The notes under the pieces are model-generated. The model was given only the letters and a program-made list of their open reading frames with translations. It made no database searches and was not told the DNA's origin. 64,000 nt of DNA. It comes from Lingula anatina. Lineage: Eukaryota > Animalia > Brachiopoda. The position numbers and the translations under genes are program-made. Of this stretch, positions 12,601-47,250 are shown piece after piece (position 1 is the first letter of the stretch; each line of letters starts with the position of its first letter). The stretch spans positions 11,470,001-11,534,000 of the forward strand of contig CM120646.1 in assembly GCA_051362555.1 (NCBI GenBank). Direction: 5' to 3'.

Positions 12601-15600
12601 TTTTTTCATAATACGCGCCTTCACGTCGTTATTTTTCACCTTCACTAGAATCGGTCTCTTTTGGCCCTGTTTTCCTGGTATTCTGTGGACTGCTAAAAGC
12701 TCATCCATGTTCACCTTGACATCCACTTCTTGTTGGAGTAGTTTTGCCACTGTATTGGTCGTGTTTTCATCTCTTAACTCCTTAACACCATAAATTTTAA
12801 TATTGTTTTTACGCGAGTACTGTTCATTATAGTTCGCTTTGATTTGTGCTGCTTTCGACATTTGGCACGCCTCTTCCGCCATTTTTGTTAACTTTGCAAT
12901 TTCCTTTTTATTTTCGTGTATTTTTTCTTTCAGTAGTTCATTTTCAACGGTTAAATGGTCATATCCATCTTTCAAAATCCCATACATCAATTCTAAAAAG
13001 CCCGAAAAAACGGTCTTTTCACAAAGTATAGTTTGAATCAAATATTTCCATCGATGCACGGTGTCTTCACGATACTGTCACTCACCCCGTACTTTTTTCT
13101 GGTGCGTGCATCCCTTGATCCGATGGCAAATTCCCGCAGCTCAGCAAACCACGTACTCCGCCCCGTCAGCCATCTTACATCCTTCACGTACATGTATGTT
13201 CCTTTTTGGGGTTAGACGATGGCGTACTTTTTTATCCATAGTTTCAAGAGAGTGATACTTTGCTACCAACTTCTTCATGTGGGACCATAATAAAATAATA
13301 AAATATAGTTTGTAATCTGTGCACTAAATATTCTAAGAACATGCCTGTGGCCTCATGTGCCGCACTAAATTAAAAATTCAATTATCGGTAGAAACATTTT
13401 TGTAATATCAGGTAAAAGATGCACTTTAAAATGCCCCTTATTGGTTAGAGATGTGTAGTTTGTGAAATCGCATATAGATAATCTCTTCATTCTGGGAAAA
13501 TATAGGGCAATGACTCTTTAAAACAAATTAGTGTTTATACAAGTATAATTTAATATGTCTCTTTCTCTCTTCTCTTTCTTTTACCTTCATGATCTTTGGG
13601 AAAGCGCTGCACTCTTAAGCGACCCAGAAGAATTATGTGCTGCACCTACAAAATAAATATGAAAACATTTAAAATGTAATTTAAAGGACTGTTTAAGAAG
13701 GGTAAATGGAGGATTATAGTTAAGAAGGCGTGAGTATAAGAAAACTATTATAGATCACCAGTATAAACTGTTTCATTCAAATTCAATTTTTAAAAGTTAT
13801 TCTTACTATCACAGTATCTTTGTCCGTTTATATATTTCTACGAATATCACAATCTATACACACAGATTTCATTAAATTTCTGTGCCTGGTTGTACCTCTT
13901 CACACATTATTGTGTTCATTTTTTTAAATTAATAATACTCCTAACCTTTCCATTCGAGACAAAGACAAACGCATTTTTAAAGTGTGTATGTGTGTGTTTG
14001 AGAAAGGGCTCCATGAGCTAACTATTCAACCGATAAAAAGATTTTCCCTTATGTGACCTGGAGGTTATGTTGGAGAAATGGCACGACACCTGTACATGTA
14101 TGTAATGTAAACATTCTCTCCGTAACCCGTAGCTGCTCACATTGTCAAAAAGGTACATATAAATACAAATTGATAAAAAACGCACTGAAAATGGCATTTC
14201 ATCATTTCAACATGTAATTGCATGTAGCACGCTTGCCCATCATATACCCGCAACAACCTTAGCAGATGCACAAATGATTCAAAAAGTCAAACAAATGACT
14301 GCCTTCCCTCGCTTTTTGGTGTATTCACGCGGCGCACTGTTAGGATAAATAGATTGCCCAAGATTTACGCAGTGCTGTTAAAGTAACTTTAGCGTGTAAA
14401 ATAAATAAAGCTTTCTTTAATAATTGCTAGGTGGCATCATACCCACACATCCACGCAAACATCCACGCACATTCACACGCGGTGAAATATATTAACAAGA
14501 TAGCAAAGCTGTCAAATGTACAGAGAAAAAAAGCAGAAAATCATAATGCACAAAATAGGATCCTGTCAATAATGCATTATTCCTAACTGCAAAGACAGCA
14601 TCAAATGTAATATTGCACAACAGGTAATACCGATGAAAGTAAATGCATAAGGCTTCAGACCCATGAGATTTTACATAAAACAAAAAATCAATTTACTGTT
14701 ATTTTTATATGAAGAACTAAGAAAGTTGTTGGCATGGGGAAATATCAATAGAACAATTTTAAATGTCCAATTTACCCCATTCTGAGATTCTGAACATCGT
14801 GAATGATTGAATCTGACAAACATTAATGATATGAGTTTATTTCCATTTTTGACACTATTACACAATACACGATAACGGGTTAACCATCATTCTTATGTAA
14901 TCAAATAAAATATTGTTAAGATGCGGTAAATGTACAAGGAACACTTTTAGGTACCTCATTAGTTCAAGAATGAGAATGTTAACATGCCCAAGAATTAAGA
15001 AAAACCATATATACACAAAAGGTAAAGCTTATTTTCTAACTTGATCTGTATTTTAGTAATATTAATCACTCCTGAATGTTTCAAGACAATAGGCCTATCA
15101 ATTTTCTTTGAAATGTGTTATCAGTGTTGTATTTAAGCCGAAAAAAGCTAAAAACAGCATAACTTTTAAGAAAATGGCCCGACCATGCGGATTTTCGAAC
15201 TAGACCTGCATATCATGCATATTTATTAGTTCTGTAAGTTTCAAGCCAAAAAATAAAATAGTATTCCACTTATCGTGTTATCGGTGTTGCATATATGTTG
15301 AAAAAAGTGAGAAAAAAAAAACAGCATAACTTATATAAAAATGGTCCGCTCATGCTGATTTTTTAACTTGACCTGCGTATTATGAATAATCATCAGTTCC
15401 GTAAGTTTCAAGCCAAAAGGTAAAACGGTTTTCCACTTATCGTGATATCGTGTTATCGGTAAAAGAGCACGGCGACGACGACGGCGACAACGACAGACGC
15501 AGGTGACGATCTTTGTCTGTACATAAAAATTACTTGCAATATCAAACTTCGTTTCAGCTAGTCATTTGGAAGCGGCTTTACAAGATGAACTAAATACCGT

Positions 15601-16692
15601 GTATGTGCGCGAGAATGGAACTGCCAAACTCCAGTGGTCACTGTTTATTGGGGAAAATGCAGGCAGGTCGTCGGTGAACTTCATGGTCAAAAAGAGAGGC
15701 GCTCTGCTTTGTCAGTGGGTTAAGGCACACTGGGAGGTAAACCAATGCGACCCAGGAATGACCTTAACAATCAGCCCAAAACAAGTGCATGTACCGGGTC
15801 CAACCAACATTAATTTTACGTTTTCGTTGAGGAACAAGAGTCTTGTCGATGATGGGACCTACGAGGGTCGCTTAGTGATTGACGAAAAATGGCAGGAGAT
15901 GCAAGTGTATCCGAAATATTTAGTGACAACGGGTGAGTTACTGATGCAGATGCTTTCATCTGCTAATATGTAATACATGTGGTTGGTTTTCTATCAGAAT
16001 CATTAGTTTCACTTGATTAATTGCATACAAAAGTATAAATTTAACCTCACATTTAGCATTTCGTAAAGCAATTAACCAGAATATATTCCATTTCCTTTTT
16101 GTTATTGGAAAAATCCGGCTTACTTTGTAAAATGTCTTTGTATTTCGATATAGCCATTCGAAAGGCTTTATTATAATTATGCAAGTCTGCAGTACTATAT
16201 TTTTGAGAAAAAAAAACATACGATGTAAGTATGTATGTATTCTAGTATAAAAAAAGAGAAACGTGTGATTATTAAACATACCGTAAGGTTGATCAAATAA
16301 ATGAGTTTGTTATTGTTTTACGTTTAAAAAGCATAAAGCCCTATCCTTTTTTCTTAGTTGAACCAACCGTGACCTTGAATGCAACTTACAGCAACACCTG
16401 CATCACTGACATCATCTGCCATGTAAGAGGTGGCCGCCCAAAGCCTATTGAAACGGTCCTTATAAAGAACGGAACTGAAATATCTCGCTCCAGTCTTAAA
16501 TGCCAAGAAGAAGCAGGGAACACAGATGACAATGAGGCATCTCATTGCTCTTCAGTCCATTCTATCGAAAACTCAGGCGGTCAATTCAAGTGCAGAGTGG
16601 AACATGCCGGTTACTTCGTTGACAGCACAGAAGTGGACATGCCATTTGAAAGAAAAGGTGAACATGAGCAGTGTTATTTTATTAAATTACAA

Positions 16693-16751
<59 letters not shown>

Positions 16752-17503
16752 AACACACACATTAACACACACGCTCACACAATAGTGCTGGTTGCATAAA
16801 TAGTGCTGGTTACATAAAACGAAACTAAAAGTGATATTTATTGAAATTCTATTAATTGTCAAGATCAATCCATTTTGGTTTTTTTCGTGTTTTTTATCAA
16901 TTCATGTTTTCTCTTTTAATGTTTTAAATCAACGTTAACGGCAGAAAACGAAACAAGAGCTCCACATCCTGTGAGAAATGACTGTGATTGTACAGGCTAC
17001 ACAGATGCTTACTTCATACTATTTATCATTGCCTTAGTAATAGTAATAGTAATGGTAATGATAATGGTTATTGTAATAAGGCAAGGGTGGAAAAGATTGA
17101 AACTCGCGGAAAGCTACGGTAAGTAACACTCATTTCGGTTTGACTCATTTACTTAAACCTTAATAGTGCGCCCATTTTCTGTTTTAACGGAGCATTTTTG
17201 ATACCACGTGTTGACAGTTACTGGGAAATAACATTGCAAAAGGCTTTGTGCTTTCGCTGGCCGAGAACCCTGTAGATATGTTTCTTTCTCTATTAAGTAC
17301 TGCACAGCATCAGTTGCTTTACAGATCGAGCTACGCGTGTTCAGAGGAAAGAACGAGAACAATTGTGTGCCCTTGATATCGAGGCCAATGAAATTGGCAT
17401 TCAAGTTACAGATGACCAAGAGGTATCTGTTTTGTTTACGACAGCCAACGTCTCTGAAACAGCCGTCGTAAACCAGCCTTTGTCGGTCCCAAGCCCGAAT
17501 TAA
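6614..17503 (+). CDS. IgSF receptor gene B (~374 aa): exons 6614-6710 (signal), 15558-15932 (V-like), 16358-16657 (C2-like), 16945-17118 (stalk CxC + TM), 17325-17503 (cytoplasmic)
   Basis: All introns are phase 1 with GT-AG and the frame is open to TAA at 17501-17503. Leader ..VYWLILVIL|ASHLEAA. TM YFILFIIALVIVIVMVMIMVIVI. Tail ends ..NQPLSVPSPN*. The first exon is inferred from its conservation in both duplicated blocks and is less certain than the others. Confidence 0.82.
8307..12097 (-). pseudogene. LINE ORF2 (APE endonuclease, reverse transcriptase, C-terminal CCHC) broken by about 3 frameshifts
   Basis: APE motifs NCRGL, GDWN, RLDYFL, SDH. RT motifs KSPGIDG, WRPISLLN, DMEKAFD, GVRQGDPLSP, YADD. 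C-terminal CTFC..ETLKHLFWDC. Frame breaks near 11550, 10315 and 8876. Confidence 0.92.
12358..13059 (-). CDS. LINE ORF1 protein (coiled coil + L1-type RRM/CTD)
   Basis: Heptad-rich N-part followed by NEQYSRKNNIKIYGVKE and AVHRIPGK..RPILVKVKN motifs typical of L1/Tx1 ORF1. Confidence 0.85.
   Translation of the reverse strand: MHRWKYLIQTILCEKTVFSGFLELMYGILKDGYDHLTVENELLKEKIHENKKEIAKLTKMAEEACQMSKAAQIKANYNEQYSRKNNIKIYGVKELRDENTTNTVAKLLQQEVDVKVNMDELLAVHRIPGKQGQKRPILVKVKNNDVKARIMKKRSAVKKSGKGIKFADDVTKLNIELLHRLNENESIEQAWFFNGNVYGKAKNSETKIKFDIFDIIDEKIKKENKQDVIYSVY
14494..15529 (+). mobile_element. HINE/pearl-like non-autonomous Helentron-type element (internally deleted copy), ending ~28 bp before the gene B V-exon acceptor
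   Basis: Starts AACAAG. Sub-terminal IR TGTACAGA../..TCTGTACA, internal ~160-bp repeats, GAC-rich microsatellite near the 3' end, ends ATAAAAA. Same family as 43619-45295 and 25131-27933. Confidence 0.7.
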
Positions 17504-19648: not shown

Positions 19649-22632
19649 TAAAATTTAAAAGGACTCGATATCTCCACAGACGGGATTCGAAAACAAGACC
19701 TGCTGCCCTTTCACCATACGTGCGTCTCTTCTTAGAGCCTGGGTCAAACTGTGCTTGCAACCTTTTTGCAACCACAAAATCTGCGGTCGATTGTTATCAG
19801 TTTGTGAGCTAATTAAAAACCTACAACATATTTTGATCGGCACTTAGTACTGGGCGTATGAAAAAGTAAGAAAAAATCAATCCTATTTTTAAACCAAAGT
19901 CAATAGTTATATAGTTAAGCCTTCACTTCACAATTTCTGAGCCTTGGCTAATGTAAATTTACTTTCCCCTTTTGTACATAATTTACCACATGGTTGACGT
20001 CCTTGGCTTCAGCATATGACTTCGTGTTGTGTCTCTTAATATCAATATAGGTAATGTGTGTGTGTGTGAGTGAGTGTGAGTGAATGTGTGTGTGTGTGAG
20101 TGAGCGAGCGAGCGCGTGGGCGTGTGTGTTCTAGGTCACCAGTTAAGCAATGTAGGCCCTATCTATTTGAATTCTCTCAATTGCAACTTGTCGACTATTT
20201 GTCACGTTACCTTTAAATATCAACAGTTAAAGGCAAACATAAATATACTGGTGAAAGAATACTGTAATTCCCTTTTCAAAATTTACTTTATATCATGTTG
20301 CTTGCGATCAGTTATTGTCTGTAATACCTCAATATATTCAACGCAGGTAATGTCTTTTAGCAGTCTCTAAAGATGCATGTACAGTCCACATTTTAGTTGC
20401 AAAAATATATTTTTGTCGTATGTATATCATTACAGTGAATATCAACAATGCTTCTTTATATATAAGGCTCTTTTACATGTAATGGTGGTACAACAAAGAT
20501 AAATATATGTTAAAGTTGCAGTGATATCCAGTTGAATTTTTCTTTCATCTCGAGGTGAATAAAGAAATGTTCAATTCATCTCCAGCTTCAATGCATTTAT
20601 TGAACAAGGTTTTCTTCAGAATAAAAATCCTTTGATCTTTAGTTTCTTTGCAACATCCCCTTTGAGGCATTCTTTATCTTTAATCAGTTGATATCTTCAA
20701 ATATTTGACCACTTTCATTGACGATTGAAAGAGACAAAACTGGAATAGGATCATTGGTAATGTAATTGAAACATGCCTACAGAAAGTAGCAATTGATGCA
20801 TTAAGTAAAACTAGTAAAGTGCACTTTGACACTCGATATAAAAACAAGATGCCCCGAAGGAATGTTGAATATCGCCGCCTAGGATAATTTTGTAAGATCT
20901 TTATATCTATATCTATCTATCTGAAGTATATAGAACTTTGCATAAGGTATTGAAGCAACCAGTAACTCTATCATCGTTATTATTATAATTATTTAGACTT
21001 TGTGTGTTATGCAACCTCTTCATGTGTTTGTTAATTATATGCACATGTCAAACTTAGTGTCTTTTGTATTGTGATTTGAATTGTGTGAATAAAATAGTGG
21101 ATGTAATCCAGGTCTAACAGTTTTATCCGTTCTTGCCTTTAACCTGGTAATAATTGTTGTACTGGTATGTAGAATGGTACATGTATGGGATGATATTTTG
21201 CCATTATACTTAAATCCTGAATCTAGTAGTATCTAGGTCAAAACGTCGAATTAACTTTTAAGTGAAAAAAACAATAAAAATCTAAATTCACTAAATGGCC
21301 CATGGCAACGATTATCCACGAGACACATCCCGACCCTCGCCCCCTTGGTGCGGGGTTCGGGGCCAGCTCAAGGGCCACGAATTTTTTTGGTGTTTTGGAG
21401 AACAAACGGTGTCCATATATCAAGTTTGATGTGCTTTAGAGCTACATGTAGACGTACTCAGTAACTAAACGCATTGAAAAAATGAGACGTAACAGCGTTT
21501 GGTTAATCCAATGTGGAGATGCTTAAAAAACTCGCTGTCCTCTAAATTAATCAATTTCCGACAACACGCAGTATATGTTTGCATATTCGACTGATGATTC
21601 ATGCTCGTATGTACGAAAAAAAAACTCAACCAAAAATGAAACCAGGAAATCATGACCATATTGAAAATAATTGTAAACAGACACACAATAAATATAAGGA
21701 AAATATTGATAAAGACCGGCATTTTGTAGCATCCATTGTAAAATATTAAAAAGATTATGATGCTTCATATAAAAAATTAAATACAAGACGACTAACGTCG
21801 AGAACAGATATTTCAGAAGTAATAAATACCTAACACACACACACAAAAAAAAAATTCGGTGTGGGATATAAACGCGTTCTGTAGAATTCTGTAGAATACT
21901 GAGCGTCTGTGTGTGTGTGTGTGTGTGTGTGTGCATGCGCGCGCGCACATTGATCCAAGTACAGAGTAATTTAAAGCCCTTATATTGATCAAACCTGTAA
22001 CAACAAAGATAAATATATAGCCATTTTTTGTATGCTGCAGTGACATCCATTTTCATTGACTGCTCTCATGCTGTGATGGATAAATAACATAAAATCTATC
22101 TTCAGCTTTTATCCTACCATGTTTACGCCTCCTAAATAACATGAAGAATTCAAGTTCTTTTTGTTTTTGTGAAAAAGTCCACTTTTTTTGGTTCTGCGAA
22201 AGAAATTATTTGGGCTTATTCTATCAACAGTAGGCTAATCAAATAAGGACACATCTTAATCAACCATTCACAAAATGGATTTTCCAGGAGAAAAGGACAA
22301 TTTCCCTGTCCTTAACCAATGGTTAATGAATCCATTCTGACATTCAAAGTTAGTCCCTGTTGTTTTCTAAAAATGTTTTTTTTTTTGTTATATTCTCTGA
22401 AGAAATTATTACAAAGTGAAGCCATCTATTGAGGTCGGGCGATGTGATGCAAGTATGCAAGCACAAATTCCAGAATTATTGGATTAACCGCCGCTTTGGT
22501 GGTAAAACAGAATAAATTATATTTCTATGAGTTGTTGACAACGTATTTATTGTGAAATATGGATTTCGTACGAACAGTTGTTATCCCTTAAAACTCATAG
22601 CTATATTTAATAGAAATGGTTATTCATTTCTA

Positions 22633-24025
22633 CACACACTGGACAAAAGAAGTGTCACCTACTAACTCAGAGTAATAAAAGTAGGCAGATCTTGGGAACT
22701 TATAATGCCTGGTCTACTTATAATGTGACTAATGTAATGAGTATAAAACCGCTATACCATGGCATTGTATTGTTGGTCTTGTACATGTACAGCAAATGTT
22801 ATTCCTGTCTTCCTCCAATATGGCAAGATACAGGCAATTATTTAACAGTTATAGGTGCAAGTTATTAACCTGAAGAGGCGGAATATAAGCAATGTCAGAA
22901 TATCGATACAATTGAATTGTTCAGTCAGAACCGTGCAGAGGGTCTGGTCTTGGTATAGAAACACTGGATCAAGAGGCAAATTGCCTCTGATGGGTCGTCC
23001 AAGAAAAAATACTATCCGTGAAGACCGACGGCTGATTTTGATGTCCAGGTTGTCAAAGTTCGACATTGCTTGTCAGTTGACAACACAGTGGAACAATTTC
23101 ACACATAATAATGTGTCTGTGAAAATTGCTAGGCGTCGGTTACATGCTCAGAGAGTGTACAGCAGGGTAGCAAGTCTGAAACCTCTTATATCGTTACAAA
23201 ACAAGCAACGTAGAGTGAACTAGGGTCCACAGGATCTGGAACTAGACGGTTCATGACAATTGGTCCTATATATTTTTTCTGATGAGTGTCGCTTTGGTCT
23301 GACCTCTGATGACAGACGGGTACTATGCTGGCAAACTGCTGGTAAAGCATTTGAACCACATGCACTGAATTTTCGAACCCGGAGCAGCATATTCATCATG
23401 GTGTGGGGCTGCATCAGCATCCATGGCTTGGGCGAATTGATAGTGGTTAATGGAAACACGAATCACTAGAAATATATCGATGTTTTGGAGTCAGGCTTGC
23501 TACCATCTATTACTAACATGTTTGGTGACAGGAATTATCCATTTGTTCACCAGGATGACAATGCTCCTTGTCACAGGCCCAGAGCAGTTGATGATTGGTT
23601 TGACCAACAGGACATTCGCAGGGTGATGTGGCCTGCCCAGAGTCCGGATGCAAACATAATAGAAAATGTGTGGAATGATATGTCACCAACTTTTTAAAAA
23701 TGTCCGTCTAACCAGCAGAGAAACTCTGTTATATTCAGTGTTTCATGCTTGGGCCAGCATAAGCCCTGAACGCATCAGACAATTATATGAATCCTTGCTT
23801 CGTAGACTGGCACCTATTATTAGGTCAAGTGGCTATGCCACTAAGTACTGATTTTGGACTTGAAACTGCATATTTTGGTAGAATGTATATTTTGTTCTCA
23901 TTTTGTGATTTTTTTGTGAAATTTGATGTTAATAAAATGATACCAGGAGCATATCATTCCACAGTCATTTATCTCCCCCATAGTATTGGCTCAGAAGGGG
24001 TGACACTTCTTTTGTCCAGTGTGTG
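22633..24025 (+). mobile_element. Tc1-family (DD34E) DNA transposon, defective, 1393 bp
   Basis: 27-bp TIR CACACACTGGACAAAAGAAGTGTCACC with TA duplication. Empty site in the paralog at 49407-49408. Transposase remnants GRPRK, IFSDE, MVWGCI, QDDNAPCH..WPAQSPDANIIE (34-residue D-E spacing), with stops and frameshifts. Confidence 0.95.
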
Positions 24026-25056
24026 TACACCTGCAATGTTATAGGCATGTGTCAAAGTATAAAAATATAACACAATGTGTTTTGATCTACCATACTGTGA
24101 ATCAGAAGCCTAGGCTTGTTGCCGATCAATTCAGGCACAAATGTAATATAGTAGGTCACCCGACCCTGGTATTAGCAATCGTGAACCTGAATATTGATCA
24201 GCTGATTTAGCTATGGTGGTAACTTGTGATACTTGCAGTTGACGTACTATAATAGTTTGCATTGATTTTGTGTTTGTATACTTTGTATGTAGTTTTTCAC
24301 GGCGAATTTGGAAAGATCGGATTTATATTGCGGTGTCTAGGTTAAATATGTAAATAAGGACCTTGATGCTAATGCCTTCGTGAAGAAAATCTTTAATGTT
24401 GACGCACTGGCACATGTCATTTTTCTTTACTCAGGGTCATCTGAGTTAGTGCTGCATGCATGGCGGCTTTGCCAACCGCTAAAGCACACTGATTTATATT
24501 GATTCTGGAAAAAACTCATTTGAAGCTAACACGAATTTTCGTGATGGAGTTAACAGAAAGGTAAACATGCTTATGAAAATAAATGCAATGCGTTCCCAGG
24601 GTCCATTTTACAGCTGTTTGGTTAAGAAAAATGAAAGAGTTTATTTTTATCTGTTCGCGGAATTTCCATATTTAGTTGGGATTTATCGTTGCGGTAGCTG
24701 CACACATGTACTGTATATTATGGCGAAGTTGCACATCTATAAAATGGCTGCAACCCTTGATTCCAAAAGCCCCTAAAGCCTAATGTTCGTAAGTCCAAAT
24801 TTTTTTATAAATCTGTTATTTGAAACCTTTTACAATTTATACATTTGCATAATAATTTTATTTATGCAAGTTACCTCTCTATGTTCTGTAATACCTGTAT
24901 GTTCACCTTTATTGTTATGGTTCAGAGCTAGCATGTACACCTGAAAAATGAATATACCCGTTAGCAGTCCACTTCTATGATGGTAATCAAAATATCTCTC
25001 TCTCCTCTCGAAACTTATGACGATTTCATTTTCAAGAGCAACTTCTTACTGTTCTT

Positions 25057-25099
<43 letters not shown>

Positions 25100-25130
25100 T
25101 TAAGTGTATCCAATAATATTTCCTTTAATT

Positions 25131-27933
25131 TTTATGTACAGACACAGATGTGTCTGTACATATAGCCATCACCTGCGTCTGTCGTCGCCGTCGTCGTCGC
25201 CGTGCACTTTTACCGATAACACGATAAGTGGAAAACCATTTTTTCTTTTGGCTTACAGAACTGATGAATATTCATAATACGCAGATCAAGTTCAAAAATC
25301 AGCATGATTGGGCTATTTTTAGGGAAGTTATGCTGTTTTTTCCCTTTTTTCAGCATTTATATAGCACCGATAACATGATAAGTGGAAAACCGTTTTATTT
25401 TTTGGTTTGAAACTTATAGAACTGATGAATATTCATAATACGCAGGTCAAGTTCGAAAATCAGCATGATCGGTCCATTTATATGGAAGTTATGCTGTTTT
25501 TTCATTTTTTTCAGCATTTATGCAACACCGATAACACGATATTTGAAAAACCGTTTTACCTTTTCACTTGAAACTTACAGAATTGATAAATATTAATAAT
25601 ACCCAGGTCAAGTTCGAAAATCAGCATGATAGGAACATTTTTATGGAAGTAATGCTGTTTTTTTCACTTTTTTCAGCATATATTCAACCCTGATAACACG
25701 ATAAATGAAAAACCACTTTACTTTTTGGCTTGAAACTTACAGAACTGATGAATATCTATAATACCCAAGTTAAGTTTGAAAATTGGCATGATCAGGGCAT
25801 TTTTATATAAAGTTTTGCTGTTTTTTCACTTTTTTTCAGCATATATGCAACACCTATAACACACTTAAAAGAAAATTGATTGGCCAATTGTCTTGAAATT
25901 CACAGTAGTGATCAGTGTTACTGAAATACAGATTAAGTCTTGAAAATAAGCTTGATCAGTTAAAGTTTGGTGAAGTTATGCCTTTTTTGTATATAAGTGT
26001 TTTTTTCCTTAAATTTAATTCTCAGGCATGTTAACAGTCATTTTTGAACTAATTAGATATGTTAAAAAAACTCATATCTTTACATTTTGTCAGATTCAAC
26101 CATTCACTATGTTCAGAATCTCAGAATGGAGCAAGTTGGACATTTATAATTGTTCTATTGAAATTTTTGCTTTGACAACATATTTTTTGATCGATCATAT
26201 AAAAAATGACAGTAAATTGATTATTTTGTTTTATGAAAAAAAGGTGTTGAAAATGGATATGAACTCTTTCAATACAGTTTTCTCTTGTTTACATTTTGGT
26301 ATTTTCAAAGTATGACTCTGAACTCTATGGGCTAGTCACATTTTCTGAATATCCATGATACTTTTATTTTTTTATTTAAAAATTTATGTTTATTTATTTA
26401 TGCTGTTAAGCATTGTGTAATATTGCATCAAAATTGAACAAAACCCTATTCGGGCACTGCCTCCGTAGTGGCGGTGAAAGGAAAACCATGTCACTTGCTC
26501 TTCTCACACTTACAGGAAAGAAACATAGGACTGAAATACAGCTTCAGTTGAAAAATTGTCTCATTAGTTAGTTATATTTTTATCTTTCACATGTTGAAAT
26601 TTTCAATGTGGGACTTAGAGCTCCCTTGGGCATGAAGCCCAGTGGTAATCAAATTTTCTTAATGTCCATGTTTTTAATAGTAGATATTTTAAAATTGGTG
26701 GTATTTATACAGTTAATCATTATGTAATGTTGCATCAAAATTGACAAAAAACCTACTTTGTGCTCTGCCACCATTATTATTATGTAAAGTAAAGTGTTAA
26801 GTTCAATTTTTTAACTAGTCTTACAAGAATGATTCATAGGATTGACATACAGCTTATATTAGAAAACCAGCTCTATTGGATTATCATTTTTATTAAATTT
26901 ATGCATTTTTTTTTAAATTTCTAATTGTAAACTTGAACTCTGATGGGCCTGAAACCTTATGCTTTTACTTTCATCAGTGTTACCTGTTGTGCATAATTAA
27001 AATTTGATGTTAACTGTGCAGTTAAACATAATGTATTATTGCATCAGAAGTGGCAGTCTCCTGTTTTTGTGCATTGCTGTTTTCTGCTTTTCTTAAGGTG
27101 TGACTTATGGGCCTGAAGACCTTTGATAGAAAAATTTGTGTGGTCAGTCTGTAAATTCCCCTTGGGTATTCGCTAGGCTAAGTTCAGTGCTATAAACTAA
27201 TTTGCCTAATTATAAGTGGCCATTAAATGAGATTTCATAAAGCACACTTGTTGATATTTCCCTGTAAACTCCCAAAGGTTAGACTCTCTGCTAGATAACA
27301 TAGTGTCCATAATAAGGAAGCAGTAAATAGCAGCTTCATTGGAATTATATTTTTGTTGTTTTTTTAAAAATTTTTTCTCCAACACTGGCATTTTTAAGAT
27401 GTGACTTTTAACTCCCATCCACCTGAGGCTCTGCACATTTTCTGTATTTCCACATAAGCAGTTGTATTGGTATTTGTCTTTAAACACTATGTAGCATTAT
27501 TTTATGCACTGTCATCATTTTTTCATATATTGGGACTTGCATCATGTGAATTTAACTCTCATGGTCATGAAACTGTAATATTATTGAAGGAGTGTATTGA
27601 GACCATCTTCTGGGTCTCCAGTAAGACAGTCAGATTTTAAAGTTCATATTGATAGGTATCTATTTTTTCTGTTGGAAGACCATCAAAATGGGAGATGGAT
27701 CAACAAAGATACTTTGGAATACTGTCAGAAAATATCTCTGGATCTGCTCCTGTTATTGACCATGTTACCTGTTGCGCATGATTAAAAATCAGTGTTGACT
27801 GACTGTGCTATTATAAGAATTATTTATTATTGCATCAAAATTGACAAAATGACCTATTTTGCATCTTTTTTTCTGTTTTTTTTTTTTTTTTTTTTTTTTT
27901 TGTCTGTACATTTGACAGCTTTGCTGCCTTGTT
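25131..27933 (-). mobile_element. HINE/pearl-like non-autonomous Helentron-type element (~2.8 kb) with an internal array of ~4 x ~160 bp
   Basis: Reverse complement of the 14494 and 43619 family. Hairpin TGTACAGACACA-GA-TGTGTCTGTACA at ~25135-25160, (GTC)n tract, repeat units starting ~25212/25367/25528/25690. Comparison with the empty site at 53341-53360 shows insertion in a T-run with no TSD. Confidence 0.75.
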
Positions 27934-27955: not shown

Positions 27956-28490
27956 ACAACCAAACAAGTGCTGTGAGAAATGTCGGCGTGAATGTCGTGC
28001 AGACAGTTATAGCGGTATTATTAGTTCATGTATTTGGACTGATAATACTTGTTGTACTGGTATATCAAATTTGGAATCCTGTGTGAACCCCCAAACAACT
28101 TTTTACACCCTATGCATTTGTATCAGTGTGGCTGATTTACCTAATCCAGACAAAGTTACTTTAATAAGACTATTTACTATACAAAAACTTTTGCCCATTA
28201 CTGTAAAAAAAGCAAAATTGTATCTTTAAGTGTTGTTAATTACAGGTTTTGTAGGTGCCTTTAAGTTTGAATTGATAAATATTTCCGACTTCTCTTGCAC
28301 GATGTTTGTTTTATACTTCCAGCTAACGATGTTATACACCAGGCAGAAGAACAAACGTAACACTGTGTTGCCCAGATTTCTTTGGTTCATGATTGTCGCG
28401 CCTGCCGAAAATGAAAACGAACCTTGCGTTTCACAAAATCAGGCCCCGTCTCACAGAAAATCTTAAGTCCTCTTCTGTGGCTAAAATGGA
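27956..28490 (+). pseudogene. IgSF receptor pseudogene C (paralog of gene E): only TM and cytoplasmic exon remnants
   Basis: 27956-28093 matches the gene E TM exon but has TGA at 28084 and has lost its donor. 28323-28490 matches the gene E tail exon with frameshifts. Signal, V and C2 exons are missing: homology jumps from ~24780 (=50210) to ~24955 (=53140). Confidence 0.85.
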
Positions 28491-28618
28491 GTTACTTAAC
28501 TTACTTACTTACTTAGAATAAATATAAATAAATAAAATTAAATTAAAAATAAAGTAAAATAAAAAGCCGCGTTCCTCGTTTTATCTATCTGAATTTCAGC
28601 AACTATTTAGAAATCTTA

Positions 28619-30923: not shown

Positions 30924-31007
<84 letters not shown>

Positions 31008-31011
<4 letters not shown>

Positions 31012-33720
31012 AGGTTTGCTGTGTTTGTTGTGTTAGCTATGATTGTGTTCGGTGTGTATCGTGTATGTTCGTATGTGTACGTAGAGGTCAAGGGTTGAAA
31101 GACCGCGCCCCATAAAATTTGATTTCCACCTGAGAGTCGGACGGAGATGCAGGTTGAATAACTGAAATAGGTATTCCAGTGAGCTTGCAGGTAAGTTTAA
31201 CTATATTTAATAAAGGACCAATCCATAGTTTAAATTCATACATTTCTAAATTGATATATTTATTTTTTATGGTGTTTTTGGCATTGTTATATTTTTATTT
31301 CTTTGTTCTGTCTTTCTTGTCTTTCGTCAGTGTAAATTTTGTATATGTAATTGTTTAAAATTAATTTGTTTATATTGCTCTTGCAGATATTTGGAGATAT
31401 TTGGAGATATTTGTACAATAACAATAAAGAAACATCAACCCGAGCTATCGGTCTGTTACATTTGGCGCCCGAACAGGGACTTGACTACAAATTGATATCT
31501 GCAAGAGTCACGGCCTGTTAAGAGAGATATTTTCGTCCGTCCTCCAAGGGTCCCCACTGCCCCGTATAACACGGTCCAGAGAAGAGGGATACTTTCTTTC
31601 TCTCCGCCAAGGATTCCCGCTGCCCCGTAGAACACGGTCCAGTGAAAAGGGATTGTTTTTCTTGCTGTCCGGTAAAACACCGATCAGTATATTCAGATGA
31701 TGTGTTGATGGCCATGGACGAGTTGTCGTCGATCTAATGCTGTGCCTTTGTGACTGTGCCCGATTCGCATAGGTCTACGTGGACAGCTACGAGTTGACAG
31801 TCGAGGATTTGGTTGCTTGGTTTGGCGTAATTGTCGAACTTTACATTGACTGCAGTGTACATATTTTGCCTAGGCTGTATATATTTCATTTGACTGTGGA
31901 CTTTAATATTTTTTTGCCGATATTCAGACATTGATATTGAACTTTTCTGATTGCACTGTTGTATAAAATTGGACTACTATTCCCACTGACTTTTGGATTT
32001 GTCCATATAAAGACTTTTGATACCTGTACATATATTTTTTATTCACCAGTAATTTATATATTTGAGGCTAGGTATAATACAAACATAACGTTGGTAGAAT
32101 TTTTATTTTCATCTAACACGTTGGTTTGTTGATTACCAGGCTTCGTAGGAGTTCTTTAAAGTAATGAATACCAAATTATTTATTTATTTTTTCTTAACAA
32201 TTTGATAATTTACAGTAGTTTGACTAATTTTCTTATTTTTTTTGCAGACAGTTCTAAAAACACCAATTTTAGATCATAGTTGGCGATATCTCAGACTAGT
32301 GGATTGGTCCTAATTAGTGAACTAGGTCTATATAAAGACACGGAGTCTTATGGTCCTATATATCCAGCAGATTCTCTCAGGTAAGTGATATTTATTTAGG
32401 GATTTTTTTTCTTGCCTGGGGGAAAGGGGGCCTACATTTCTCCCGATGTGTGAGTTTTGAATGTGTCTTCAACTGATTATGAATATGTTGTGATGATATT
32501 GATATGATGGTGTGAAATCATGACTGTGCATTGATGCTATTGATATGTACTTGACAATGAATAAATAAACATTTTTGACTATTGTGTTGTTATTATTCAT
32601 GAATGAATGTGATGTATATATTAGCTAGCAATATGGCATAAAAGTTTTTGAGAATGGCCTACCTATCGTCTTTATTAAGGTCAAGAAGCATTGTCATTAC
32701 TGGACTGCCCGAACAAATTACAGACTCTGAATTGAAAGACTTTTTAAAATTCCATCTGGTATTCCATTTAAGCAGTGGTTGTTTGAAGTCAAAGCTCTTC
32801 GACGTGACGGTATTTATTCCGATGCCGTTTTATTACATGCGATCAGAAGGTCACTCAAAGGTTCTGCGTCTGATGTTTTATATCACTTGGTTTGGTTCGG
32901 AATGTCGCATTCGATGGTAAACACAAGATTGCTGATAGATGGCAGAGTGAAGTGTTTGTGGTAGTAGATCAGCCGAATGATGGTATTCCAGTGTATGTAG
33001 TGAAAAGAGAAGATGGTGCAGGAAAATCAAAGACACTACATCGAAACATGTTACTTCCCATCTATGAAATGAAACAGGAATATGAAGAAAAACAGAATGA
33101 AGAACTTGCAGAAGTACGACCCACAAGAAGTAAGAACAGGCCAGAATGGATGAATAACAAAGATTGGATATTGTAAATAAAATTATATGGCATAATAAAT
33201 ATAAATCAAAGATTGATGTTGTTGTTGTTTTTAATGGTGTGGAACCCATTTCGGGGGGAGGGGAGAATGTAAGGTTTGCTGTGTTTGTTGTGTTAGCTAT
33301 GATTGTGTTCGGTGTGTATCGTGTATGTTCGTATGTGTACGTAGAGGTCAAGGGTTGAAAGACCGCGCCCCATAAAATTTGATTTCCACCTGAGAGTCGG
33401 ACGGAGATGCAGGTTGAATAACTGAAATAGGTATTCCAGTGAGCTTGCAGGTAAGTTTAACTATATTTAATAAAGGACCAATCCACAGTTTAAATTCATA
33501 CATTTCTAAATTGATATATTTATTTTTTATGGTGTTTTTGGCATTGTTATATTTTTATTTCTTTGTTCTGTCTTTCTTGTCTTTCGTCAGTGTAAATTTT
33601 GTATATGTAATTGTTTAAAATTAATTTGTTTATATTGCTCTTGCAGATATTTGGAGATATTTGGAGATATTTGTACAATAACAATAAAGAAACATCAACC
33701 CGAGCTATCGGTCTGTTACA
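31008..33720 (+). mobile_element. Non-autonomous Gypsy-type LTR retrotransposon (2.7 kb) inserted in a (TA)n tract
   Basis: 453-bp LTRs (31008-31460 and 33268-33720), TG..CA ends, one mismatch seen. PBS TGGCGCCCGAACAGGGAC at 31463-31480. PPT GGGGGGAGGGGAGAA at 33253-33267. Interior holds PNMA-like gag relics (SIVITGLPE; EVKALRR..AIRRSLKGSASDVL) joined to an integrase C-terminus (GKHKIADRW..PVYVVK..KTLHRNMLLP). No RT. Confidence 0.93.
31463..31480 (+). promoter_or_regulatory. Primer binding site complementary to the 3' end of tRNA-Lys(UUU)
   Basis: 18-nt TGGCGCCCGAACAGGGAC, 2 nt after the 5' LTR; this is the known tRNA-Lys3 PBS sequence. Confidence 0.9.
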
Positions 33721-33989
33721 TATATATAGACTTGACATTTAATATGGAATATTTCGGTTTCGAAGGTATACCTAGGTAAAAATGCGTTCTTTTATCAAAA
33801 AACTCCGATCTCATATAAGATTTGTGAATGGAGAACTGTGTAGTCAGGTGTGTCGCTACCAATTATCTGACTTTCATGTCTGTTGCGCTGCTACATTATG
33901 TAATGTGCAGTGATTTAATTGGGTAGTGTTCCTTTGGACTGGTCAAAGCTTGGCTTGGGCAAAGCTTGGTTCTGTCAAAAAAAGTATCC

Positions 33990-36759: not shown

Positions 36760-37283
36760 ATATATATAACAATTGTTTCCGTTGTACGACGTTTTAAAAA
36801 TGTTGGAATTGTTTTAATACCTATCCTGTGAATAGAAGGGGGCGGACAAACAATGGGGAGCCGTCTAAATCCCATCAAAATTCGAACGAAAAAACACAAT
36901 AGTTTAGGCGTACCCGTAATAACACACAATATCTTAGGCGAGTGAAACCCATGACGCCGGTATCTGTGGTCCAGCGCGAGTGCAACAATCCGCTGTAACA
37001 AAGTGTAATTAACAGCACGATACATCAGCCAGAAGGCCCCCATTGTTTGTTCTAGCGAAAGGATTATAGCTGTAAGAGGTTTGAACCCATGCTACCGCGT
37101 GCCACTAAACTGTCTCCCGTAGCGAACTGTCCTTTTGTTCACTAGTTTGGCACGCGCAGCTGATTTTCTTTTTAGTGTTGCTAAAAAACTGCTAGTTAAA
37201 TTTGTTATCAGGTATTTCATTCAATATAAATTTTCTGTAGTCAAAAATTGAACTAAGTATTGTTTGTTTGATTAACACGCATT
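36760..37283 (-). repeat. Dispersed ~510-bp repeat; inverted copy of 2270-2783 (gene A V-C2 intron)
   Basis: Reverse-complement similarity along its length (e.g. CAGCTGCGCGTGCCAAACTAGTGAACAAAAGGACAGTTCGCTACG). Family not identified. Confidence 0.75.
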
Positions 37284-38540: not shown

Positions 38541-38574
<34 letters not shown>

Positions 38575-40939: not shown

Positions 40940-43900
40940 ATGTTTCTGGTATTTTCCATTTACCTTAAAAGCAGTACCAAACTGGAGAAGGTGAAACAAA
41001 CACATAAAGTTTACTGGTTGATATTGGTAATACTAGGTAAGATGAATATCAATTTTATCGATGTACTAGTTCTGTATGTCAACATTGGATTGAATGGTGC
41101 TGCAAGAAATTGAGTCTTTTAGGTGTATGAAAGTGTATGCCTCTGTAGACGTTAATTTTATCTTGAAAATATGAAAATATGAGAAACAGATATACCTGTA
41201 TAGATACAAGTACTGGGAAACTTACATTCTGCATTGAAACGGATCATTTACCCTGTCTGCATAGTGTTGTTGGTCGTGACGGCGGATTGGTTGTTGAATG
41301 GTTTAAATGCAATGTCTATTTTTGTCGAACAAACACAGCAGGCACACGACATTGCTTCAAAGTTTTAATATTCAACGTTGGTCTACATTGATTCGCCATT
41401 AGATTTATCAACATTTACCATAAGTTGATTTCATATTGATTTTAAGATGAGACAAACAACATTGATTTCAAATTTCTATATTTATTTTGTAAATTGTATA
41501 TAAGAAAACTGCTACAAATTAAATGGGATTACATACACTGTATATATTTCTGTATACAAAAACAAGGCATAAAATAGGAAGTTACCATTAAGAAGATTTC
41601 TGATGAACATTTTAATATTGTTAATTGTTAAAACAATATGTCCAAAAGTAGTCTTCCAATGAGAATTCTAGTAAAAGCTTTTCATTTTGTTGTGTTCACA
41701 AAATTAAAATCTAGCCTAAAGGAAAATTTAGCATATTTCAAATGACATCGCAACAACACATCGCTGTAGTCAAAGTCCCTTTTGTGATTTCTAGAATGTT
41801 TGATATTTCTGATATAATATTCTGATATAATATTTGGGCCTCGAATGGAAAAAAACATGTTGTTTATTAAATGCTTATTTTACTGTCAAAAGGGTGTATT
41901 ATCCCCCCCACCTTTTCACAATATTCAGTGACAAGCAAACTAAAGTCGCTCAAAATATAACTGCTTCATACGTTTCCACTGCTGTACACGTATGTTCCTT
42001 TTTGGGGTTAGACGATAGAGCTAACACCCCATTTCCATAGATTTTTAGATCGATCTATCCCTGTGGGGAGTCTCACTATATTACTGTCAGCTTGGCCGGC
42101 TTAAGCGTCTGTCCCGCCTACTAAAAGCTGTAAGGGGGTAATTAACTAAGGTGCCCGCTCGGCTGACTGCAATTTAGCGTGAACCCCCAGGGAGTTAGGT
42201 CGATCTAATTCTTAATCTTAAGAACGATATAAATCTCTGGGAAAGCACCCTAAGATACTTTGCTACAAACCTCTTAATGTTGGACCACAATATAATAATC
42301 AAACATAGTTTGTAATCTGTGCACTAAATATTCTAAGAGCATGCCTGTGACCTCATGTGCTGCACAAAATTAAAGATTCAATTATCGGTAGAAACCTTAT
42401 TAATATCAGGTAAAAGATGCACTTTAAAATGCCCTTTGTTGGTTATAGATGTGTAGTCTGTGAAATCGCATATAGATAATCTCTTCATTCTGGGAAAATA
42501 TAGGGCAATGACTCTTTAAAACAAATTAGTGTTTATACAAGTATAATTTAATATGTCTCTTTCTCTCTTCTCTTTCTTTTACCTTCATGATCTTTGGGAA
42601 AGCGCTGCACTCTTAAGCGACCCAGAAGAATTATGTGCTGCACCTACAAAATAAATATGAAAACATTTAAAATGTAATTTAAAGGACTGTTTAAGAAGGG
42701 TAAATGGAGGATTATAGTTAAGAAGGCGTGAGTATAAGAAAACTATTATAGATCACCAGTATAAACTGTTTCATTCAAATTCAATTTTTAAAAGTTATTC
42801 TTACTATCACAGTATCTTTGTCCGTTTATATATTTCTACGAATATCACAATCTATACACACAGATTTCATTAAATTTCTGTGCCTGGTTGTACCTCTTCC
42901 CACATTATTGTGTACATATTTTAATTCGATGATACTCCTAACCTTTCCATTCGAGACAAAGGCAAGCGCCTTTCAGAGTGTGTGGTGTCTTTGTGAAAGA
43001 GCTCCATGAGCTAACTATTCAACCGACAAACTGATTTTCCCATATGTGACCTGAAGGTTATGTTGGAGAAATGGCACGGCTCCCGTATGTAATGTAAACA
43101 TTCTCTCCGTGACCCGTAGCTGCTAACATTGTTAAAAAGGGTACATATAAATACAAACTGATAAAAAGCGCACTGAAAATCGCATTTCATCATTTCAACG
43201 AATCAGATTTCAACACACGGCCCCTGCGACAAATTATATGTGATGTGAGCTGTAGCAACATAGGCGTCATAGATAGTGCTCAGTAGTGATCAAATTAGGC
43301 AAATTCCTTGATGCTCTAAAGTACAGTAACACTAACATGTAATTGCATGTAGCACGCTTGCCCATCATATACCCGCAACAACCTTAGCAGATGCACAAAT
43401 GATTCAAAAAGTCAAACAAATGACTGCCTTCCCTCGCTTTTTGGTGTATTCACGCGGCGCACTGTTAGGATAAATAGATTGCCCAAGATTTACGCAGTGC
43501 TGTTAAAGTAACTTTAGCGTGTAAAATAAATAAAGCTTTCTTTAATAATTGCTAGGTGGCATCATACCCACACATCCACGCAAACATCCACGCACATTCA
43601 CACGCGGTGAAATATATTAACAAGATAGCAAAGCTGTCAAATGTACAGAGAAAAAAAGCAGAAAATAATAATGCACAAAATAGGATCCTGTCAATAATGC
43701 ATTATTCCTAACTGCAAAGACAGCATCAAATGTAATATTGCACAACAGGTAATACCGATGAAAGTAAATGCATAAGGCTTCAGACCCATGAGAGTTCAAG
43801 TTCACAAATTGCCAAAATGAGAAAAATGAAAATTTGAAAAAACAAAAATAGATGCATAAATTTAATTTAAAAAATCCGATAGAGCTGGTTTTGTCATTTG

Positions 43901-46459
43901 AGCTGTATGTCAATCGTAATAATCATTCTTGTAAGTTGAAAATATAATAAGTAACAGTTTTCTTTTCATAACGTTTGTGGTGGCAGTGCACGAAGTGTTT
44001 TTTTTGTCATCTTTGATGCAATATTACATTTAGAAAATTTGATTACCACTGGGCTTTATGCGTTGGGGTTTTAAGTCCCACAATGTAAATGCCAATATGT
44101 GAAAGATAAAAATTTTGCAAAAATGTACAACAGAAAAGAAGCTTTTCCAACTCAGGCTGAATTTAAGTCCTACCTGTATGTTACCTTTCTGAAAGTTTGA
44201 GAAGGGTAAGTGACATGGTTTTTCCTTAATGGTCTTTGTGGAAGCTCAGTGCCCAAAACGGGGTTTTCTTCATTTTGATGCAATGTTACATAATGTTTAA
44301 CAGCATAATGACCATCAATTTTAATAATAAAATGAAAATGTCATGGATATTCAGAATAACAAAGCTCTTCAAGCCCATGGAAGTTCAAAGTAACACCTTG
44401 AAAATGCCAAAATGTAAACAAGAGATAACTATACTGAAATGAGTTTATTTCCACTTTCACCACATTTTACATAAAACAAAAAATCAATTTACTGTCATTT
44501 TTATATGAAGAACTAAGAAAGTTGTTGGCATGGGAAAATATCAATAGAACAATTTTAAATGTCCAATTTACCCCATTCTGAGATTCTGAACATCGTGAAT
44601 GATTGAATCTGACAAACATTAATGATATGAGTTTATTTCCATTTTTGACACTATTACACAATACACGATAACGGGTTAACCATCATTCTTATGTAATCAA
44701 ATAAAATATTGTTAAGATGCGGTAAATGTACAAGGAACACTTTTAGGTACCTCATAAGTTCAAGAATGAGAATGTTAACATGCCCAAGAATTAAGAAAAA
44801 CCATATATACACAAAAGGTAAAGCTTATTTTCTAACTTGATCTGTATTTTAGTAATATTAATCACTCCTGAATGTTTCAAGACAATAGGCCTATCAATTT
44901 TCTTTGAAATGTGTTATCAGTGTTGTATATAAGCCGAAAAAAGCTAAAAACAGCATAACTTTTAAGAAAATGGCCCGACCATGCGGATTTTCGAACTAGA
45001 CCTGCATATCATGCATATTTATTAGTTCTGTAAGTTTCAAGCCAAAAAATAAAATAGTATTCCACTTATCGTGTTATCGGTGTTGCATATATGTTGAAAA
45101 AAGTGAGAAAAAAACAGCATAACTTATATAAAAATGGTCCGCTCATGCTGATTTTTTTAACTTGACCTGCGTATTATGAATATTCATCAGTTCCGTAAAT
45201 TTTCAAGCCAAAAGGTAAAACTCGGTGAAAGAGCACGGCGACGACGAAGGCGACAACGACAGACGCGGGTGACGATCTGTGTCTGTACATAAAAATTACT
45301 TGCAATATCAAACTTCGTTTCAGCTAGTCATTTGGAAGCGGCTTTACAAGATGAACTAAATACCGTGTATGTGCGCGAGAATGGAACTGCCAAACTCCAG
45401 TGGTCACTGTTTATTGGGGAAAATGCAGGCAGGTCGTCGGTGAACTTCATGGTCAAAAAGAGAGGCGCTCTGCTTTGTCAGTGGGTAAAGGCACACTGGG
45501 AGGTAAACCAATGCGACCCAGGAATGACCTTAACAATCAGCCCAAAACAAGTGCGTGTACCGGGTCCAACCAACATTAATGTTACGTTTTCGTTGAGGAA
45601 CAAGAGTCTTGTCGATGATGGGACCTACGAGGGTCGCTTAGTGATTGACGAAAAATGGCAGGAGATGCAAGTGTATCCGAAATATTTAGTGACAAAGGGT
45701 GAGTTACTGATGCAGATGCTTTCATCTGCTAATATGTAATACATGTGGTTGGTTACTTGTATCTATCAGAATCATTAGTTTCACTTGATTAATTGCATAC
45801 AAAAGTATAAATTTAACCTCAAAATTAGCATTTCATTAAGCAATTAACCAGAATATATTCCATTTCCTTTTTGTTATTTGAAAAATCTGGTTAACTTTGT
45901 ACAATTTCTTTGTATTTTGATATAGCCATTCGAAAGCCTCTATTATAATTATGCAAGTCTGCAGTATTATATATTTGAGAAAAAAACTTATTATGAAAAT
46001 GAATGTATGTATTCTAGTATAAAAAAAGAGAAACGTGTGATTATTAAACATATCGTAAGGTTGATCAAATAAATGAGTTTGTTATTGCTTTACGTTTAAA
46101 CAGCATAAAGCCCTATCCTTTTTTCTTAGTTGAACCAGTTGTGACCTTGAACGCTACTTACAGCAACACCTGCATCGCCGACATCATCTGCCATGCACGA
46201 GGTGGCCGCCCAAAGCCTGTTGAAACGATCCTTATAAAGGATGGAACTGAAATATCTCGTTCCAGACTTAAATGTCAAGAAGAAGCAGGGAACACAGATG
46301 GCAATGAGGCATCTCAGTGCTCTTCAGTCCATTCTATCGAAAACTCAGGCGGTCAATACAAGTGTAGAGTGGAACATGCCGATTACATTGTTGACAGTGC
46401 TGAAGTGGACATCCCATTTGGAAGAAAAGGTGAAAATGAGCAGTGTCATTTTGTGATAT

Positions 46460-46511
<52 letters not shown>

Positions 46512-47250
46512 AACACACACATTAACACAAACGCTCACACAATAGTGCTGGTTACATAAATAGCGCTGGTTACATAAAAAACGAAACTAAAAATAATATT
46601 TATGTTTTTTATAATGTTTTTTTTACATTTCTCTTTTTTAATGTTTCAACGTTAACGGCAGAAAACGAAACAAGGGGACCAGGTCCTGTGAGAAATGACT
46701 GTGGTTGTACAGGCTACAGAGGCGAATTCTTCATACCATTTATCATTGCCTTAACAATAGAAATAGTAATGGTAATTGTAATGGCAATAATGCTAGCGTG
46801 GAAAATATTGAAACACGTGAAAAGCTACGGTAAGTTACACTCATTTCGGTTTGACCGATTCACTTATACCTTTTAAAAATAGCTACTTTGATGGGACTTT
46901 AAAAAACGTTGCACCCATTTTCTGTTTCAACTAAGCTTTGTTATGACATAACGTGTTGACAGTTGCAACGAGATAATATTGTGGAAGGCTTTGTACATTC
47001 GCCTGCTGCAAAACATGTAAACATGTTTCCTTCTCTTTAAAGTACTACACAGCATCATTGTTTTACAGATCGAGTTACGCATGTTTACAGAGGGGGAGAA
47101 AGGGAACAAGTTTGTGTCCTTAATATCGAGTACAGTGAACCTGGCATCCAAGTTACAGATGACCCAGAGGAACCTGTTCGGTTTAGAACAGACAAAGTTT
47201 CTGAAACAGCCGTCTTAAACCAGCCAAAGTCGGTCCCCAGCCCGAATTGA
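40940..47250 (+). CDS. IgSF receptor gene D (~373 aa): exons 40940-41036 (signal), 45324-45698 (V-like), 46130-46429 (C2-like), 46662-46829 (stalk CxC + TM), 47069-47250 (cytoplasmic)
   Basis: Phase-1 GT-AG introns, open frame to TGA at 47248-47250. TM FFIPFIIALTIEIVMVIVMAIMLAW. Tail SYDRVTHVYRGG..NIEYSEPG..SVPSPN*. Paralog of gene B. Confidence 0.85.
43619..45295 (+). mobile_element. HINE/pearl-like element at the same intronic position as the copy in gene B
   Basis: Same termini and flanks as 14494-15529, plus ~670 bp (about 43793-44464) absent from the gene B copy. Confidence 0.7.

Follow-up and report, generated by a model that had tools for sequence, protein, structure and literature searches.

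We report that two duplicated genes of the immunoglobulin superfamily (IgSF) in the brachiopod Lingula anatina share a nearly identical V-type Ig exon, while their transmembrane (TM) and cytoplasmic tail exons have diverged beyond the level of the surrounding DNA. The genes, here called B and D, lie in a window of 64,000 nt (assembly GCA_051362555.1, contig CM120646.1, positions 11,470,001 to 11,534,000; positions below are those of the window), a stretch of AT-rich animal DNA that carries a same-strand cluster of genes A, B, C, D and E and the leader of one more gene. Sequence comparison showed that B+C and D+E represent the same block in duplicate. B and D are each predicted to have five exons, joined at canonical splice sites into open frames of 374 aa (B) and 373 aa (D), and to encode surface proteins with one V-type and one C-type Ig domain; their V exons lie 29.8 kb apart, the linkage being that of the assembly, and their leader exons, which are 8% diverged, lie far upstream of the V exons (Table 1). 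A previous sequence-only reading had interpreted B and D as a paired receptor, in which gene conversion keeps the ligand-binding exon shared between two genes of different outputs. A conversion-like tract over the V exon stood up to the analysis; the paired receptor with opposing outputs did not.

The duplicated block comprises 10,073 alignable columns between B and D. The uniform divergence that the sequence-only reading had named as the outcome speaking against it was not seen, since the block shows three levels, of about 1%, 9% and 18%. The background, taken outside the homogenised tracts and the TM-tail island described below, differs at 683 of 7,231 columns (9.4%). The V exons fall in the lowest level: as had been claimed, they differ at only 4 of 375 nt (1.1%), giving 3 amino acid replacements and 121 of 124 identical residues (a silent change at 15721, H/R at 15789, F/V at 15815 and T/K at 15930). 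The C exon, already described as clearly different at 15 of 100 residues, differs at 28 of 300 nt (9.3%), with an amino acid change in 15 of 99 whole codons. The divergence claimed for the last two exons was also borne out, with 26 of 168 nt (15.5%), 20 of 55 aa and one 2-codon indel in the TM exon, and 32 of 179 nt (17.9%) and 19 of 58 aa in the tail exon. Together with intron 4, these two exons form a TM-tail island that differs at 97 of 552 columns (17.6%).

Two tracts of near-identity were found. Tract 1 lies wholly within intron 1 and is identical at 441 of 441 positions. Tract 2 comprises the 3′ part of intron 1, an element resembling a HINE (Helentron-associated element), the V exon and the first 117 bp of intron 2, and carries 16 substitutions in 1,809 columns (0.9%); its limits, previously placed at about 14200-16050 in B and 43330-45830 in D, were found at 14209-16049 and 43334-45821. 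The claim that the upstream intron and the HINE-like element are nearly identical thus holds for the aligned columns of tract 2 and not for its continuity, which is interrupted by 671 bp of the element present only in D and by indels of 29, 6, 3, 1 and 1 bp. The significance of the tracts was assessed by column shuffles and informative-site counts, in place of GENECONV/RDP. None of 2,000 column shuffles gave fewer than 101 differences in any 1,800 columns, compared with the 16 observed, or an identical run longer than 166, compared with 441; the TM-tail island beat 2,000 of 2,000 shuffles. These results uphold a recent conversion-like tract over the V exon, with a geometry like that described for SIGLEC11/16, in which a tract of ~2 kb extends over the V exon and sequence upstream of it (PMC5701461).

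Intron 1 of B proved to be a patchwork when gene A was used as a third sequence for informative sites. Between 13254 and 13460, 17 sites grouped A with B, 2 grouped A with D and none grouped B with D. Within tract 1 (13461-13901) the pattern was reversed, with 49 sites shared by B and D and none supporting the other pairings, and between 13902 and 14032 it returned to 15 A=B, 1 A=D and 3 B=D. B differs from A at only 3/156, 2/280 and 2/125 columns in the A-like parts of the intron, and it carries its own sequence at 14027-14208, before tract 2 begins. There are therefore at least four partner changes in B between 13.2 and 16.1 kb, for which a single unequal crossover as the origin of B was rejected. 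Sharp-edged near-identity at silent and intronic sites, combined with partner switching among paralogues, is what interlocus gene conversion leaves behind. Since B is the copy that switches partners, tract 1 would most simply have been transferred from D to B. The conversion is not V-specific: purely intronic DNA has been affected too, and gene A is involved.

With the element copy in C and genes A and E as outgroups, 8 of the 16 tract 2 substitutions were polarised as derived in B and 7 as derived in D, with 1 left unassigned; derived changes on both sides argue against one collapsed consensus. Tract 2a, the part running from a 137-bp indel to the 671-bp indel, is, together with tract 1, cleaner (1/900) than tract 2b (15/1,350; P = 0.004), which suggests more than one conversion event. 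From these sequence comparisons, partial homogenisation in this brachiopod IgSF cluster is likely real, and so is a recurrent process of conversion.

Judged from the divergence of each exon, homogenisation is strongest in V whatever the depth of comparison within the family. Between A and B, synonymous divergence is 29/152 in V+C compared with 112/274 in the TM exon plus intron 4 (P = 3e-6), and between B or D and the more distant gene E the synonymous divergence (dS) lies at 0.28-0.30 for V and 0.58-0.69 for C (P = 0.05 and 0.01); B/D and E tails showed no significant similarity. Homologue searches retrieved only two family members, both uncharacterised and both from a separate L. anatina assembly: LOC106165109 (XP_013398659.1; hereafter P0001) and LOC106165093 (XP_013398639.1; P0002), which are 69-74% identical to the V domain of D. 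The former has an E-type leader, V, C, TM and tail, and the latter a B/D-type leader and V only; these searches turned up no annotated protein that carries a B/D-type tail. The P0002 model stops a few residues into the presumed intron, and may be a secreted form or a truncated model. Despite their unrelated leaders, P0001 and P0002 are identical at 66 of 71 aa in the V core, compared with 6 of 18 and 19 of 35 at the V ends (P = 2e-8), and in a tree of the V ends P0001 grouped with E with 96% support. The other 6 of 7 matches of the search that retrieved P0002 were not used; of the three among them that were looked at, one is an eel multi-Ig protein matching over 38 residues and two are bacterial-looking sequences. 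A PDB sequence search gave nothing below E = 0.07.

At the other end of the genes, intron 4 differs at 39 of 205 columns (19%), level with its flanking exons and above the other introns (P = 1e-5). CpG decay was rejected as the cause of the island, as non-CpG divergence is 15-19%. Measured against A, B and D showed no rate asymmetry (10 vs 8 changes in the TM exon and 4 vs 10 in intron 4). An intron diverged like the exons, with CpG decay excluded, argues for an older ancestry of the TM-tail segment more than for positive selection, and points to escape from conversion or import from another paralogue as its origin. Peaks of divergence among converted sequence are a known mark of selection against conversion (PMC3924837), and the island, intron 4 included, would be a peak of this kind. 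The nonsynonymous to synonymous ratio (dN/dS) between B and D comes to 0.37 for C, 1.14 for TM and 0.87 for the tail. Amino acid change is faster in TM+tail than in C (P = 2e-4), and nonsynonymous and synonymous differences in TM+tail are equal (48/260 and 15/80, P = 1.0). The TM helices of both genes are encoded by a hexamer-like repeat (16945-17118 in B, 46662-46829 in D), and slippage of it may explain the 2-codon length difference of the TM exons.

The predicted tails of B and D are homologous, of 72 and 71 aa, and the stalk, TM and tail are together 64% identical. We scanned them for the immunoreceptor tyrosine-based inhibitory, switch and activation motifs (ITIM, ITSM and ITAM), the ITIM and ITSM patterns being [ILVS]xYxx[ILV] and TxYxx[VI]. 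No ITIM, ITSM, ITAM, hemITAM, YxxM or YxN was found in B or D, and no ITIM, ITSM, ITAM or YxxPhi in E or P0001. Neither TM segment of B and D contains a Lys or Arg; that of B is uncharged and that of D contains a Glu. B has one tail Tyr and D three, including a YxxPhi and a YxxP. Hence the claim of a pair with opposing outputs was not sustained, and paired-receptor function, or opposite signalling of B and D, is unsupported.

The V domain itself has an unusual sequence. The predicted structure of the D domain (mean predicted local distance difference test score 81.8, from a six-sequence alignment) is a V-frame beta-sandwich with nine strands of three or more residues. Its top Foldseek matches were CAR D1, CD96 D1, SCN4B and TIM-3 (E about 2e-4), and VIA-align matches, including P0, VCBP3 D1 and CD48, gave Z 10.1-11.0 with 86-104 aligned residues at a root-mean-square deviation of 1.8-3.0. 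As the structural matches are 6-20% identical and all 50 listed Z-scores are tied within 1, the model indicates a V-set fold and picks out no single family. Atlas neighbours of the domain include V-set clusters at 0.91-0.94. The canonical B-F disulfide and C-strand Trp pattern was not found in B and D, which carry Gly at the F-strand Cys position, where A, E, P0001 and P0002 have Cys, and apparently Trp at the B-strand Cys position (a position deduced from the model and motif spacing); the D-x-G-x-Y corner is retained. A Pfam search gave no V-set match for either V domain. The second domain, previously called C2, is an Ig domain whose best Pfam match is C1-set (27.5 and 22.5 bits, with a cut-off of 21), Ig_2 lying below cut-off. 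A homodimer prediction for the V domain scored 0.01 and 0.00 with the alignment not used; it gave no answer and was not taken as evidence.

Partial homogenisation of this sort has been termed merohomogenization in vertebrate receptors (PMC3210942). As described for SIGLEC11/16, Xenopus ceacam301/303, KLRC and PIR (PMC3210942, PMC5701461, PMC5112662), B and D are linked tandem paralogues with near-identical putative ligand-binding domains, their tract of about 2 kb takes in upstream DNA and the V exon at 99% identity against a background of about 91%, the tracts are fragmented and recur in separate lineages, and the stalk, TM and cytoplasmic parts are spared, although in L. anatina intronic tracts have also been converted. 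B and D lie in the same orientation, unlike the opposed Xenopus pairs (PMC5112662), and differ from vertebrate pairs in having homologous tails of equal length and no ITIM/ITAM or basic TM residue. Long and short tails define pairs of an ITIM member with an ITAM or basic-TM member (PMC13358205). Neither an ITIM or ITSM in the long tail of either member, nor an ITAM or hemITAM, nor a short tail with a basic TM residue was found, and by that definition B and D therefore do not belong to the paired-receptor class (PMC13358205). The Hydractinia Alr genes also form a cluster of invertebrate IgSF genes whose V domain is unusual and escapes Pfam; domain 1 resembles the B/D V domain in its missing canonical disulfide, and in both families the tails diverge more than the ectodomains (10.1101/2022.03.04.482883). 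The Alr ectodomain, of domains of the V, I-set and Fn3-like types, and the ITAM/ITIM of several Alr proteins set them apart from B and D, as described in the same source. In B and D two Ig exons are followed by a short stalk, with no Fn3-sized exon, and no Alr protein was among the matches of the family sequence searches. Lingula is solitary, so colony allorecognition does not apply to it. The top matches of the D V model fall among proteins of V-C adhesion or co-receptor architecture (nectin, CAR, P0, CD48, CD200, B7, butyrophilin). The literature searched, which did not cover Gerdol et al. 2018, reportedly a survey of L. anatina immunity, contained no report of ligand-binding-exon conversion for brachiopods or for these genes, and a search on the accessions of P0001 and P0002 and their genes returned no paper.

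We tentatively propose that recurrent conversion keeps the V exon shared and that the tails are kept different, with D signalling or internalising and B quieter. According to this proposal, a block containing a B/D-type and an E-type gene would have been duplicated in tandem, about 30-34 kb apart, and the same-orientation copies would misalign between chromatids or homologues and swap tracts of 0.1-2 kb, the TM-tail segment having escaped exchange the longest. With near-identical V exons, B and D would bind the same partner, a putative shared ligand; the tail tyrosines of D are predicted to serve phosphorylation or endocytosis, and its TM glutamate to contact a partner chain. Several observations weigh against this proposal. 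Background divergence varies along the block: outside the island, windows of 300 columns reach 17.7% and the best 550-column window has 79 differences compared with 100 in the island, so the shuffle test overstates the island. In the V-core tree the grouping of P0001 with P0002 has only 31% support, which makes their sharing depend on identity counts more than on the tree, and the difference in P0001-E identity between V core and C domain reaches P = 0.054. The residual divergence of tract 2 is below the heterozygosity of 1.6% given for L. anatina (PMC4595640), which means that another allele may have served as donor and that the tract is undatable. YxxPhi is a short and common motif, and the dN/dS of about 1 in TM+tail is explained equally well by relaxed constraint. 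Both TM and tail indels amount to whole codons and neither frame has acquired a stop, but two frames would stay stop-free by random change with a 9% chance, which makes this weak evidence of selection.

Much the same divergence map would be produced by neutral concerted evolution, with unselected tracts wherever paralogues are similar, Ig exons held by purifying selection at a similarity that lets them go on converting, weakly constrained TM and tails drifting, and B and D redundant molecules of adhesion or recognition. We consider this somewhat unlikely, although a good part of the evidence suits it: tract 1, like the A-B tract, lies entirely within intronic DNA, the V exon makes up only 17% of the homogenised B/D columns, the edges of tract 2a coincide with indels, TM+tail dN/dS is near 1, and the neighbours are decaying (the remnant C, and A with an out-of-phase TM exon). 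Also, B/D homology breaks off for 3.5 kb just past the stop codon, a gap that would make conversion near the tail less frequent. Most other edges of the block, however, show no raised divergence (7.8% at 5999-6365), and in the sister pair C/E the TM-tail segment stays at background level (60/659, 9.1%; P = 2e-5 compared with the B/D island); the whole-codon indels and the repetition of V-core sharing in a second genome also speak against drift alone. An assembly artefact, in which B+C and D+E are divergent haplotypes of one locus placed in tandem, or reads were mis-assigned in consensus or polishing, seems improbable. It would account for residuals at allele level (0.9% in tract 2, 0.7-1.9% in the A-like segments) and for the complete identity of tract 1, and hypervariable invertebrate receptor regions with gene presence/absence are known (PMC13712769). 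Yet the 9.4% background is about six times the reported heterozygosity, both copies of tract 2 carry derived changes and are separated by the 671-bp indel, B has private sequence at 14027-14208, several partner switches within 1 kb would be required, V-core sharing is similar in the independent assembly, and two long terminal repeats (LTRs) of 455 bp lying 2.3 kb apart were kept distinct at a single base. Least probable of all, in our judgement very much so, is a true activating/inhibitory pair with a non-canonical code, in which the D tyrosines bring in a phosphatase or kinase, the opposite signal coming from B, or from D by way of its TM Glu and an adaptor with a basic residue. The SIGLEC11/16-like tract geometry (PMC5701461) fits such a pair, invertebrate ITIM/ITAM IgSF clusters exist (Hydractinia Alr and Botryllus FcoR, the latter with a 'core-1' motif YxxI/L/V; PMC12582321), and only D has a YxxI/L/V-like motif and a charged TM residue; against it are the lack of ITIM, ITSM, ITAM, hemITAM, YxxM and YxN in B and D and of ITIM, ITSM, ITAM and YxxPhi in E and P0001, the lack of a short-tailed, basic-TM partner, and tails that are 64%-identical homologues, unlike the defining long and short tails (PMC13358205).

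Table 1. Features of the B/D region and of the neighbouring genes in the window.
Feature	Positions	Strand	Remarks
Gene A	1675-4311	+	B/D-type paralogue; V 1675-2064, C 3075-3374, TM 4142-4311; leader beyond window
Gene B leader exon	6614-6710	+	32 codons, predicted signal peptide, phase-1 donor
L1-like LINE in B intron 1	7796-13184	-	Identical 15-bp target-site duplication; RVT_1, weak endonuclease
A-like segment of B intron 1	13185-13460	+	Continues A-like 7640-7795 across the LINE
Tract 1 in B	13461-13901	+	
Second A-like segment of B intron 1	13902-14010	+	
Tract 2 in B	14209-16049	+	
HINE-like non-autonomous element	14504-15525	+	Same site in B and D, just upstream of V acceptor; ends approximate
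Gene B V-type Ig exon	15558-15932	+	AG/GT bounded; fold shown for 98% identical D domain
Gene B C-type Ig exon	16358-16657	+	
Gene B stalk/TM exon	16945-17118	+	
Gene B tail exon	17325-17503	+	To stop; whole tail without any scanned motif
Gene C	27956-28500	+	E-type gene remnant; TM and tail exons only, stops present
Gene D leader exon	40940-41036	+	
Tract 1 in D	42459-42899	+	
Tract 2 in D	43334-45821	+	D-only part of element at 43793-44463
Gene D V-type Ig exon	45324-45698	+	AG/GT bounded; predicted V-set fold
Gene D C-type Ig exon	46130-46429	+	
Gene D stalk/TM exon	46662-46829	+	Glu within predicted TM helix
Gene D tail exon	47069-47250	+	To stop; YxxPhi of the tail spans the exon junction
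Gene E	51046-54000	+	355-aa model; leader 51046-51097, V 52166-52546, C 52850-53146, TM 53376-53513, tail from 53800

The B leader is 50% identical to the N-terminus of P0002, and gene E, whose leader and tail are unrelated to those of B and D, is the counterpart of LOC106165109. For gene A no B-like tail exon was found, and candidate exons at 4591 and 5105 gave no unique frame; its TM exon, of 170 nt, is one base out of phase with those of B and D, and a degenerate duplicate of its C exon lies at 3700-3950. Gene A may be tail-less, have another tail or be broken. Leader, V and C exons of gene C were looked for and none was found. A further E-type gene is represented at 58095-58979 by its upstream region and its leader (58755-58814), with no V exon before the window ends.

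Mobile elements and repeats lie in and around these genes. The HINE-like element, absent from this site in A and E, has a 13-nt subterminal inverted repeat (14516-14528/15512-15524), a 3′ hairpin and internal repeats of 161-167 bp, features of the HINE structure described in PMC4067079. A longer HINE-like copy lies at 25126-27910 on the minus strand, inserted into what remains of C, just upstream of the TM exon, the corresponding site in E being empty. The long interspersed nuclear element (LINE) of B intron 1 is not in A or D and looks full-length; its second open reading frame (ORF2) runs over several frames, for which decay and assembly indels are not distinguishable. A Tc1/mariner element with 29-nt perfect terminal inverted repeats (22631-24027) and, on the other strand, a 97% identical short deletion derivative (28617-29041) are both missing from the D+E block. 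The two LTRs mentioned above belong to a short element at 31007-33721, with a primer-binding-site-like motif after the first LTR and no long internal ORF on its own strand. A dispersed repeat, 84% identical, occurs on opposite strands at 2272-2761 (A intron 2) and 36773-37282 (between C and D), and an AT-rich tandem satellite, its unit roughly 170-175 bp long, extends from 61814 to 64000 and past the window end.

In immune receptors of vertebrates, cases of conversion confined to the ligand-binding exons are on record. If the pattern in L. anatina is neutral, it would be a caution that a paired receptor's genomic signature can appear in genes that lack the signalling motifs. A bolder possibility, to which we give little credence, is that brachiopods independently evolved a merohomogenised IgSF cluster, displaying one V across the tails of A, B, D and E, with D and B as a shared-ligand pair that uses a non-ITIM tyrosine code and an acidic TM residue; the latter, if true, would reverse the charge arrangement between receptor and adaptor of vertebrates. 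If selection drives the pattern, the cluster would represent a convergent solution in a lophotrochozoan.

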